This document shows, in pieces, positions 13,941 to 15,275 of a stretch of DNA of 64,000 bases (its first letter is position 1; every line of letters starts with the position of its first letter). The translations under genes and the position numbers were made by a program. Source of the stretch: Escherichia coli. GTDB taxonomy: Bacteria; Pseudomonadota; Gammaproteobacteria; Enterobacterales; Enterobacteriaceae. The notes beneath the pieces are model-generated. The model searched no databases. It saw nothing but the letters and a program-made list of their open reading frames with translations, and was not told the DNA's origin. The stretch lies in assembly GCF_044324785.1 (NCBI RefSeq), contig NZ_CP172127.1, one strand, 5' to 3'.

Positions 13941-13980
13941 GCCACGTCATCTGTAAGCAATTATTCATATCGTAGACAAC

Positions 13981-14250
13981 TTAGTTAGAGTTAATTAGCT
14001 TATCAATCTCTGCAAGAGATAAAGCTGTCACCTCTGCAACGTCTTCCCGAGACATCCCTTTATTCAGAAAACGTTGGGCGAATTCCTGTCTTACTTCCTG
14101 TCTTACTTCCTGTCTTACTTCCTGTCTTACTTCCTGTCTTACTTCCTGTCTTACTTCTTGATACGCTTCTTGATACGCCTTCTGAAATCCCTTCTCTTCA
14201 AACCACTGCGCTAACGTCTGCCTGGTTTCTCTCCGTGTCTTTATTTCCAT
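13981..14250 (-). CDS. stand-alone Rpn tail-domain protein (89 aa), paralog of the C-terminus of the adjacent rpnC-like gene
   Basis: ATG at 14250 with SD aaggga 5 nt upstream; MEIKTRRETRQTLAQWFEEKG...(QEVR)n...FAQRFLNKGMSREDVAEVTALSLAEIDKLINSN parallels the last ~70 aa of the 318-aa ORF upstream. Confidence 0.6.
   Translation of the reverse strand: MEIKTRRETRQTLAQWFEEKGFQKAYQEAYQEVRQEVRQEVRQEVRQEVRQEVRQEFAQRFLNKGMSREDVAEVTALSLAEIDKLINSN
14089..14184. repeat. in-frame 12-bp tandem repeat (about 6 units of tcttacttcctg plus degenerate units)
   Basis: Direct reading of sequence; encodes (QEVR)n on minus strand inside the tail ORF. Confidence 0.9.
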
Positions 14251-14318
14251 ATGTTCCCTTAATTATCTGGTCAGTTAACAATAACAATTATCTGGCTATA
14301 ACTGATAATACAGACAAC

Positions 14319-15275
14319 TTAGTTAATCAGTTTATCAATCTCAGCAAGAGGTAAATTTGCCATCTCTGCAACGTCTTCCCGAGACATTCCTTTACTCAGA
14401 AGACGCTGGGCGAATTCCTGACTTACTTCCTGTGTTACTTCCTGTATTACCTCTTGTCTTACCTCTTGTCTTACCTCCTGTCTTCCTTCCTGTCTTCCTT
14501 CCTGTCTTCCTTCCTGTCTTCCCCTCTCTTCAAACCACTGCGCCAGCGTCATCATAGACTCCCCTCCCGTTTCCCTGTCTCTCACCACACCATAAAACAA
14601 ATCCGCTTGTTCAGTATGACCGCGTTGCAGCATATAGTTTTGCATGGCAACTAACTGACTTCCGCTAGTGTACCCTTCGTCAATCAGCGTGACCAGTTGC
14701 TCCAGCAATAACATTAAGTCGCGCTGGCGAATATGCTTTTGCAGTAGTTCGAGAATCGCAATCCGCCGATGTTGCATGATTTCGTCATCCGGTGTGATGG
14801 TGATATCCACCAGCGGGAAAGGGTTGTTGTAAACGCGTCGCGCCAGCTCCGGCGAGTAAAACATATCAAACCAGCACATTGAGAGCGGATAAGGTGTGGC
14901 CTCGCCCTGATAAAACAGAATCGGCACCACCAGCGGCAGCTTATCGTGATCCGCCTCCAGATGCCGATGCATGGCGGCAATAGAATAACGCATCATGCGA
15001 AAGGTCATTTTCTTATCCGGCTTGCTTTGATGTTCAATCACCACATGCAAATAACCGGGATTGCCCTGCATTTGCACGGAATAGAGCACGTCAGTGCTGT
15101 GTCCTTTCAGGCTTTCTTCAATAAAACTCCCCGACTCAAGATGCAGCGTGTCGAGGTCACACAGTTCGCGTAGCTCCGCTGGCAAATGGATATCCAGAAA
15201 GTCGCGAGCCGTTTCCGCGTGCATTAAAAATTGTTTAAACACCGCATCATGCGGTGTGGTACTCGGTGCATCCAT
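14319..15275 (-). CDS. rpnC: Rpn-family (YhgA-like, PD-(D/E)XK) recombination-promoting nuclease, RpnC/YadD-like
   Basis: MDAPSTTPHDAVFKQFLMHAETARDFLDIHLPAELRELCDLDTL... typical Rpn N-terminus; sits between panC and panD as yadD does in K-12; C-terminal tail with (RQEG/RQEV)n repeats. Confidence 0.8.
   Translation of the reverse strand: MDAPSTTPHDAVFKQFLMHAETARDFLDIHLPAELRELCDLDTLHLESGSFIEESLKGHSTDVLYSVQMQGNPGYLHVVIEHQSKPDKKMTFRMMRYSIAAMHRHLEADHDKLPLVVPILFYQGEATPYPLSMCWFDMFYSPELARRVYNNPFPLVDITITPDDEIMQHRRIAILELLQKHIRQRDLMLLLEQLVTLIDEGYTSGSQLVAMQNYMLQRGHTEQADLFYGVVRDRETGGESMMTLAQWFEERGRQEGRQEGRQEGRQEVRQEVRQEVIQEVTQEVSQEFAQRLLSKGMSREDVAEMANLPLAEIDKLIN
14412..14530. repeat. in-frame 12-bp tandem repeat (cttacttcctgt / cttccttcctgt units)
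   Basis: Direct reading; encodes RQEG/RQEV tetrapeptide repeats in the rpnC-like tail. Confidence 0.9.
14550..14569 (-). promoter_or_regulatory. internal Shine-Dalgarno (gggaggggag) plus in-frame ATG-ATG inside rpnC; candidate start of a tail-only small isoform
   Basis: Minus strand reads gggaggggagtctATGATGacgctggcgcagtgg; in frame with rpnC, would give a 78-aa product. Confidence 0.45.

Follow-up and report, generated by a model that had tools for sequence, protein, structure and literature searches.

Among the closest described systems, RpnA-D of Escherichia coli K-12 have DNA endonuclease activity, are toxic and induce the SOS response (Kingston 2017; Zhong 2023, PMC10400941). The tail of an Rpn protein is also made separately via an internal start, and the small protein so produced (RpnS) binds and blocks the full-length nuclease (RpnL), the repeat number setting the specificity; the long repeat helix is the dimerisation and specificity surface. 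An equal repeat number is required, and a mismatch of one repeat abolishes inhibition (Zhong 2023, Fig. 4D, PMC10400941). Ribosome profiling showed the nested product RpnC_S in K-12, and so did SPA tagging (Zhong et al. 2023, PMC10400941). In some species, RpnS can be a separate gene annotated as DUF4351 (Zhong 2023, PMC10400941).

The extra rpnC tail gene treated here is a known, published feature, already named rpnC_Ss (Zhong et al. 2023, PNAS 120:e2307382120, PMC10400941, Fig. 2I). The same study demonstrated translation of RpnE_Ss by SPA tagging, the sole Ss protein to be tagged; reported variation of the tetrapeptide repeats in RpnSs proteins and their loss via deletion or fusion; and suspected a phage factor as the driver of the repeat variation. 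No later work on RpnSs turned up in a search of the literature published since 2023.

In this work, we analyze one such locus in a window of 64,000 nucleotides of E. coli DNA (contig NZ_CP172127.1 of assembly GCF_044324785.1). A preliminary description, prepared from the sequence alone, had listed a 318-aa and an 89-aa open reading frame on the minus strand, and both are present in the ORF list. With somewhat better than even confidence, we read the locus as the known three-product rpnC system, consisting of RpnC_L, the nested RpnC_S and the downstream, separately encoded RpnC_Ss.

The gene rpnC (14319..15275, minus strand) encodes RpnC_L, a full-length Rpn/YhgA-like PD-(D/E)XK nuclease of 318 aa with a variable C-terminal tail. 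Its N-terminus had been called Rpn/YhgA-like from the sequence alone, and Pfam agrees: the Transposase_31 (nuclease) domain PF04754 matches residues 7-207 (14655..15257, minus strand) with an E-value of 1.6e-86, and the NCBIfam model TIGR01784 scores 283 bits where the cut-off is 52.1. The residues D10, D62, E81, Q83 and the PDDEI motif at 162 are all present, and they are the counterparts of D11/D63/E82/Q84/PDDEI in RpnA, for which the catalytic residue list D11, D63, E82, Q84 comes from Kingston 2017. The orthologue carries the name rpnC in RefSeq, where it also appears as "RpnC/YadD family protein". The nuclease domain has a pN/pS of about 0.03-0.04 against E. marmotae and a divergent E. 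coli. In PADLOC-DB v2.0.0, the 318-aa protein has no match, the 2023 library evidently being without an Rpn model, and the 89-aa protein has only chance-level matches (E at least 9e-4).

The tail of rpnC contains a 12-bp repeat array (14415..14520, minus strand), which Tandem Repeats Finder (TRF) describes as period 12, 8.8 copies and 90% matches. Between WFEERG and AQRLL it encodes nine tetrapeptide units, namely RQEG three times, RQEV three times, IQEV, TQEV and SQEF. The nested rpnC_S frame (14319..14555, minus strand) lies in frame inside rpnC and begins at M241/M242, giving a product of 77-78 aa; its ATGATG start is at 14550-14555 and is preceded by GGGAGGGG at 14561-14568. In alignment with K-12, this start region (GGAGG and ATGATG) is exactly the K-12 sequence, and rpnC_S is probably translated in the window strain as well. 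The preliminary description had stated that Rpn tails are made from an internal start and inhibit the nuclease, in agreement with Zhong 2023 (PMC10400941), and had proposed a two-gene arrangement instead of the nested gene. The latter proposal has to be abandoned: because the nested rpnC_S start is intact, rpnC_Ss is an addition to rpnC_S and not a substitute for it.

The small gene rpnC_Ss (13981..14250, minus strand) encodes, as a gene of its own, an 89-aa paralogue of the rpnC tail. In a gapless BLASTP alignment, its protein matches residues 236-318 of RpnC_L, and 61 of 83 positions are identical (73%, E 6e-37); it resembles the tail only and no other part of RpnC, as had been claimed. At the DNA level, the duplicated segment comprises 245 nt (13974..14218, minus strand) and runs from GACGYTRGCGCAGTGG past the stop codon to AAGTTGTCT. 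It aligns with 14312..14550 (239 nt), with 201 identical columns out of 246 and a single 6-nt indel, TCTAAC, which adds the residues SN. The shared motif that had been noticed at the two stop codons is confirmed as TAACTAAGTTGTCT, which adjoins the stop codon in both genes. The same description had postulated a tandem duplication of about 340 bp; this figure fits the extra DNA relative to K-12 (about 340-346 bp), but the copied part is only about 245 bp, and the other 100 bp or so do not match rpnC above chance. In K-12 itself, the gap between panC and rpnC is 73 bp and contains no gene, close to the value of about 70 bp without an ORF given in the preliminary description.

Tetrapeptide repeats had been noted in both frames. 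In rpnC_Ss, the 12-bp array (14083..14183, minus strand) consists of 6.2 perfect copies at 14083-14157 and a further stretch at 14154-14183 (TRF). Its nine units are FQKA, YQEA, YQEV, RQEV five times and RQEF. This allele is the longest seen in the present analysis, the intact stand-alone genes compared with it encoding 53-77 aa. The protein (13981..14250, minus strand) appears to consist of a long repeat helix followed by C-terminal helices of the HTH_Rpn_C type. It matches the C-terminal positions 193-273 of TIGR01784 (E 3.4e-8), and its relatives carry a precomputed match to PF27070 (HTH_Rpn_C); when the 89-aa protein itself was scanned against Pfam-A, no match reached significance. The AF2 model has helices at 3-63, 68-75 and 79-86 (pLDDT 81, pTM 0.47). 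Its best PDB fold match is RpnA-S (7TH0), a weak one (E 2.8, probability 0.44, TM 0.69, with a target of 46 residues), and a phmmer search of the PDB with the 89-aa protein placed a designed "CAP repeat" HTH protein first and did not retrieve RpnA_S. From this model, RpnC_Ss would fold like RpnA_S into a single long tetrapeptide-repeat helix with a small helix-turn-helix end.

The roughly 100 bp that precede the duplicated part (14219..14311) are made up of a spacer and the codons for the leader MEIKTRRETRQ, and they are unlike anything in rpnC: compared with rpnC 14545..14700, the local score is 16 against a shuffle mean of 15.0, and 175 of 500 shuffles reached at least that score. The spacer, which extends for 68 nt from the rpnC stop to the rpnC_Ss ATG (14251..14318, minus strand), contains two copies of the direct repeat CCAGATAATT as well as the Shine-Dalgarno (SD)-like TAAGGGA (14255-14261). 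The SD sequence given in the preliminary description is thereby located as AAGGGA at 14255-14260, 4 nt upstream of the ATG. Between E. coli and E. marmotae, the spacer is identical at 62 of 69 nt while the synonymous divergence of rpnC is 0.29, that is, the spacer changes less than synonymous sites do.

A scan of the minus strand between rpnC and rpnC_Ss for sigma-70 consensus promoters and for terminators found none. Between the converging panC and rpnC_Ss lies a GC-rich hairpin, CTGGCGC...GCGCCAG (13904..13934, RNA fold), which in alignment corresponds to the hairpin directly 3' of rpnC in K-12; it is a putative terminator, which the simple terminator scan did not pick up. Since no terminator was found between the two genes and the hairpin of K-12 rpnC is now 3' of rpnC_Ss, transcripts that start at the promoters of rpnC and of the internal rpnC_S most likely read through into rpnC_Ss. 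Translation would then start from its own TAAGG(G)A-ATG.

To determine the distribution of the gene, we searched 5426 complete E. coli genomes with its leader (blastn, word 11). The leader is present in 1555 of them (about 29%) and absent from about 71%; it is found solely at the rpnC-panC site, and the spacer is conserved at 95-100% in the 1555 genomes at this single chromosomal site. A separate tail ORF directly downstream of rpnC also occurs in RefSeq genomes, and E. marmotae, located through protein look-ups, has the same order of rpnC, small gene and panC. When one genome per species was searched with a degenerate leader pattern, only two matches appeared (Oscillospiraceae and Mediterraneibacter), roughly what chance alone would give. 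A new duplication in the window strain was considered and rejected, the layout being found in several E. coli lineages as well as in E. marmotae; whereas the preliminary description presented the arrangement as one of this strain, the two-gene state is old.

Of 71 loci, 69 have an intact rpnC_Ss reading frame, and the two broken ones are on contigs with 1.2-1.6x coverage. The ATG, SD sequence and open frame of rpnC_Ss are kept in E. coli and E. marmotae, and its non-repeat part has a pN/pS of 0.53, double the 0.27 of the L tail. In some strains, IS elements interrupt the gene (loci L086 and L047), and PGAP at times labels it a partial pseudogene. Public assemblies contain the identical 89-aa protein in 95 blocks, next to a 314-aa rpnC; the exact combination of the 89-aa gene with the 318-aa rpnC is absent from the 5426 complete genomes.

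In the window, both tails have nine units, and the repeat segments are 38 residues each, with 26 of 38 identical. Elsewhere the lengths are rarely equal: they agree in 4 of 72 pairs (68 of 72 loci unequal) and in none of the 12 complete-genome pairs examined. Counted as distinct combinations, 3 of 46 are equal (6.5%), random pairing predicts 7.8%, and r = -0.11. Of 39 distinct pairs, 15 differ in length by a number of residues that is not divisible by four. A single Ss allele is found next to several L lengths in 8 of 32 alleles, and the converse is also seen. The repeat numbers of the nuclease tail and of the small gene therefore vary independently. Selection for matched or for mismatched numbers was rejected as an explanation, the observed 6.5% being indistinguishable from the random 7.8%. 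At two loci (L003 and L004), the identical 89-aa gene adjoins an rpnC of eight units, so the match in the window seems to stem from one RQEG unit that was gained recently, possibly by accident.

Since the repeat numbers are uncorrelated and inhibition is lost once they differ by one repeat, there is reason to doubt that RpnC_Ss inhibits its neighbor in strains generally; by the published rule, its action as a cognate inhibitor of the adjoining nuclease probably fails in most strains. In the window strain, where both copies have nine units, it is plausible that RpnC_Ss could pair with the tail of RpnC_L and reinforce the inhibition of that nuclease. The independent change of the repeat arrays across the species makes it unlikely that the conserved role of RpnC_Ss is simply to supply extra dosage of a cognate antitoxin.

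The tails of rpnC and rpnC_Ss exchange sequence. Both copies have mosaic C-termini, and there are Ss C-domains with 0 differences from L alleles found elsewhere, the typical number within a locus being 8-16 per 84 nt. The unit types RQEV and IEKG turn up in either copy depending on the strain, and fusion proteins occur among the homologues. The 3' end of K-12 rpnC, together with the sequence downstream of it, is the Ss 3' end of locus L053 and of E. marmotae, and the single rpnC of K-12 looks like a secondary fusion of both genes. The pair probably also serves as a recombination substrate from which new tails arise, as well as fusions like the K-12 allele.

These observations, together with the independent repeat numbers, the pairing of one Ss allele with several L lengths and vice versa, and the fusion-mediated loss mentioned in Zhong 2023 (PMC10400941), give some weight to the view that RpnC_Ss is mainly a donor cassette, that is, a spare tail module whose repeat array and C-terminal helices are swapped by recombination, diversifying the nuclease/antitoxin interface, with inhibition of the neighbor incidental. 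We nevertheless regard this as a minority possibility: a silent donor needs no conserved ATG, SD sequence or open frame, yet 69 of 71 loci, and E. marmotae too, retain all three; pN/pS is below 1; and adjacent repeats exchange with or without selection. The stronger form of the idea, in which rpnC_Ss is a deliberately non-cognate, exchangeable tail cassette and recombination switches the interface in a process resembling cassette-based variation, the K-12 allele being one product, is speculative and in our judgment rather unlikely. If it were true, escape from phages targeting particular tail lengths would be possible.

Retention of the ORF, start codon and SD sequence from E. coli to E. marmotae, despite a synonymous divergence of about 0.29 in rpnC, also bears on whether RpnC_Ss is a functionless remnant of the duplication whose decay is still to come. 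With 69 of 71 loci intact and the analogous ypaA/rpnE_Ss made as a protein (Zhong 2023, PMC10400941), we consider this improbable, even if the higher pN/pS of rpnC_Ss (0.53, against 0.27), the lack of an own promoter in the consensus scan, its loss from some 71% of the complete E. coli genomes, the IS insertions (L086, L047) and the occasional pseudogene flag speak for it. Finally, RpnC_Ss might be a modulator that titrates RpnC_S as an anti-antitoxin, or a decoy for a phage factor targeting RpnS-type tails. The predicted dimerisation helix in common (AF2 model), a length mostly unlike the neighbor's and the phage factor suspected behind the repeat variation (Zhong 2023, PMC10400941) would suit such a role, but a mismatch that blocks pairing with L should also block pairing with S, whose sequence is that of the L tail, and we think this very improbable. 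The three-product reading with which we began remains our preferred one.

The preliminary description is a correct re-discovery of a published feature, and the Rpn biology it gave was accurate. What may go slightly beyond the published work is that the repeat numbers of the small gene and the nuclease tail are almost never equal and are uncorrelated; with tails so rarely matched, and inhibition abolished by a one-repeat mismatch, the "extra antitoxin copy" reading probably fails in most strains. The window strain is a rare natural case of matched length, and close relatives have the same small gene with a nuclease one repeat shorter. Together they would form a convenient natural pair for the repeat-number rule.

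Compared with known systems, the gene is the rpnC_Ss of Zhong 2023 (PMC10400941) in identity, in position (downstream of rpnC, before panC) and in its relation to the tail, and nothing categorical differs. The K-12 gene ypaA (rpnE_Ss) is likewise a stand-alone Rpn tail copy directly downstream of its parent, rpnE, but its origin is independent: the published phylogeny groups RpnE_Ss with RpnE_S, and RpnC_Ss with RpnC_S (Zhong 2023, PMC10400941). Stand-alone genes of the DUF4351/HTH_Rpn_C type (PF14261/PF27070) are a further parallel, the relatives of RpnC_Ss carrying PF27070. The nested RpnA_S, RpnB_S, RpnC_S and RpnP2_S appear to have the same domain as RpnC_Ss, a long repeat helix with a three-helix or HTH end. 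Unlike these nested proteins, RpnC_Ss has a unique 11-residue N-terminal leader, MEIKTRRETRQ; and whereas RpnS has its codons in common with RpnL and hence co-evolves with it obligately, RpnC_Ss has a gene to itself, and its repeat number drifts without regard to that of RpnC_L.

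The locus lies between panD (15549..15929, plus strand) and panC (13048..13899, plus strand) and contains two minus-strand ORFs: the 318-aa rpnC (14319..15275) and, downstream of it, the 89-aa stand-alone tail gene rpnC_Ss (13981..14250), on which panC converges. Both assignments made in the preliminary description are real and well above chance. Transposase_31 (Pfam) covers residues 7-207 of the 318-aa protein with E 1.6e-86, and residues 236-318 align without gaps to the 89-aa protein (61/83 identical, E 6e-37). The placement of the larger ORF in the Rpn/YhgA-like family is also supported by NCBIfam TIGR01784 (283 bits versus a cut-off of 52), the last 80 positions of which match the 89-aa protein at E 3.4e-8, under the family cut-off. 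RpnA requires D11, D63, E82, Q84 and a PDDEI motif (Kingston 2017); these correspond to D10, D62, E81, Q83 and PDDEI162 here, and the 318-aa protein is predicted to be a complete Rpn/YhgA-like nuclease. Both genes carry 12-bp repeat arrays; WFEE(K/R)G and AQR(L/F)L flank the nine tetrapeptide units that each array encodes. The arrays are crossed on the plus strand by antisense ORFs (FLSYFLSY..., LPVLLPVL...) of 46-66 aa at 14074-14214, 14357-14557 and 14454-14654; we rejected them as genes, regarding them as by-products of the 12-bp periodicity.

The tail gene had been ascribed to a tandem duplication of about 340 bp. This size agrees with the extra DNA relative to K-12 (~340-346 bp), but the homologous DNA is limited to 13974..14218 versus 14312..14550 (201/246 columns identical), bounded by GACGYTRGCGCAGTGG at one end and by the stop codon plus AAGTTGTCT at the other; about 100 bp of the extra DNA is not a copy of rpnC. 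The panC-rpnC gap in K-12 is 73 bp, close to the ~70 bp given in the preliminary description. The leader of the small gene, made up of a 68-nt spacer plus codons 1-11 (MEIKTRRETRQ), shows no resemblance to rpnC upstream of its tail (local score 16, shuffle mean 15.0), and a blastn search of E. coli genomes found it nowhere outside the rpnC_Ss locus. The start of the nested tail protein is identical to that of K-12 (GGGAGGGG, then ATGATG at 14550-14555); the small gene is therefore additional to the nested gene and, contrary to what had been proposed, does not replace it. The spacer ahead of the small gene contains two copies of the 10-nt direct repeat CCAGATAATT, 27 nt apart (14261-14296). No variation was seen among the compared loci in the second copy or in the TAAGGGAAC after it, and the repeat may represent a -10-like promoter element (GATAAT) or a regulator site.

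The idea of a recent duplication does not survive the comparison of genomes: 1555 of 5426 complete E. coli genomes, including IAI39, SMS-3-5 and JJ1886, carry the leader, and E. marmotae has the same panD | rpnC > Ss > | panC layout. In the complete E. coli genomes the leader is always chromosomal, with 90-100% identity (at least 95% in all but two records) and a median of one place per genome. The maximum is three, found in at least one complete genome, which points to the existence of arrays with two or more stand-alone tail genes. A protein search gave 161 relatives. Dozens of the 120 listed are stand-alone Escherichia variants of 53-77 aa, and the 89-aa allele is the longest intact stand-alone one among the matches listed. 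The exact 89-aa protein is known from public assemblies, there beside a 314-aa rpnC, and the exact gene combination of the window was found in no complete genome searched.

The ORF is intact in 69 of the 71 loci with a full small gene, both exceptions being on contigs with 1.2-1.6x coverage. The pN/pS ratio is 0.53 for the non-repeat part of the small gene, 0.27 for the rpnC tail and ~0.03 for the nuclease domain, and the spacer differs from that of E. marmotae at 7/69 positions, with an rpnC synonymous divergence of 0.29. Taken together, these values argue for some constraint on the small-gene ORF and its translation signals, weaker than that on the nested tail. Disrupted loci also occur. On metagenome contig SKEJ01004282.1 (L047, 214-2802), a three-ORF element (216, 115 and 523 aa), which we take to be IS66-like from its gene organisation, replaces rpnC directly upstream of an intact small gene, thus orphaned and adjoining panC. 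In a blood-culture isolate (NZ_OZ546911.1; L086, 1015-1903), the small gene is disrupted, and an annotated IS3-family transposase gene starts ~12 nt past the truncated leader.

Sequence is exchanged between the two copies. Their C-terminal domains typically differ by 8-16/84 nt within one locus, and some small-gene alleles equal rpnC tail alleles of other strains across those 84 nt. The unit types RQEV, IEKG/MEKG and FQKG/YKEG occur in either copy, depending on the strain, and proteins with an rpnC-type leader and a small-gene-type end, as well as the reverse, are on record. The K-12 rpnC ends in ...KVINLI*, followed by GTTACCTGTGTTATGACAGATGACGTGG (L001, the K-12 locus, 1624-1700). This 3' end mismatches that of rpnC in two-gene strains and is close to that of the small gene in E. 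marmotae (L072). Because the K-12 rpnC 3' end, together with ~28 nt past the stop, equals the small-gene 3' end of another locus (L053), the single K-12 gene is best read as an rpnC::rpnC_Ss fusion that deleted ~340 bp, and the two-gene state would be the older one. Such fusions have been mentioned in general terms (Zhong et al. 2023, PMC10400941). On metagenome contig OJXC01000294.1 (L041, 2080-3006), the N-terminal half of a 308-aa rpn gene comes from a different paralogue; at PLVDITITPDDEI it meets the C-terminal half of rpnC, and the rpnC_Ss leader comes next. This structure reflects either true recombination between paralogues or a chimeric assembly. The 308-aa gene adjoins a gene for a 438-aa membrane protein, presumably yjiN-like (the rpnD neighbourhood).

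A consensus scan of the minus strand between the two genes found no promoter and no terminator. TAAGGGA lies 4 nt upstream of the small-gene ATG, and a GC-rich hairpin that in K-12 stands immediately behind rpnC here follows the small gene (13904-13934). The simplest route of expression would be transcription that starts at the rpnC promoter and the internal rpnC_S promoter and reads through. The AlphaFold2 model of the 89-aa protein (pLDDT 81) consists of a long helix spanning residues 3-63 and two short helices, and its top PDB fold match is E. coli RpnA-S (7TH0), with a score that is weak for a protein of this small size (E 2.8). The protein has no match in the Pfam-A library used; its relatives carry precomputed PF27070 HTH_Rpn_C.

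We compared repeat numbers at 72 two-gene loci: 12 complete-genome pairs besides the window, a set of assemblies, and 61 metagenome contigs retrieved by a pattern search with the leader. As a caveat, short-read assemblies supply the majority of these loci; an array fits within a single read, and the complete genomes agree. The repeat segments are of equal length at only 4 of 72 loci, the window included, and in none of the 12 complete-genome pairs. Among distinct allele combinations, 3/46 (6.5%) are equal, against 7.8% expected if the observed lengths are paired at random, and the two lengths correlate at -0.11. Moreover, 8/32 small-gene alleles adjoin rpnC genes of differing repeat number, and in 15/39 distinct pairs of an earlier sample the length difference in residues was not divisible by four. 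The repeat numbers of the two copies are uncoupled, which is new in the present analysis. In the nearest relatives, the identical 89-aa gene lies beside an 8-unit rpnC, and the nine-to-nine match in the window appears to stem from one RQEG unit recently gained by rpnC. The longest repeat segment seen, 50 residues, is in a 330-aa rpnC of E. marmotae (L073, 1440-2432); the 69-aa small gene next to it is elsewhere paired with an rpnC of 314 aa.

The feature itself is already published and known. The RefSeq label of the small gene varies between genomes: 'RpnC/YadD family protein', 'transposase', 'hypothetical protein' or partial pseudogene. Zhong et al. (2023, PMC10400941) reported that RpnS proteins, the Rpn tails translated from internal starts, bind and block the toxic full-length RpnL nucleases, as the preliminary description had stated. 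They also placed RpnC_Ss in a cluster with RpnC_S, described deletion and fusion as ways in which it is lost, and detected the protein of the analogous RpnE_Ss (ypaA); neither detection nor a function of RpnC_Ss is reported there, and we found no later work in the literature from 2023 onward. According to the same study, RpnC_L is blocked only by RpnC_S of equal repeat number, and one extra repeat abolishes inhibition. Since the lengths are so rarely equal, this rule implies that in most strains RpnC_Ss would not act on the neighbouring nuclease as its cognate inhibitor, contrary to what had been assumed.
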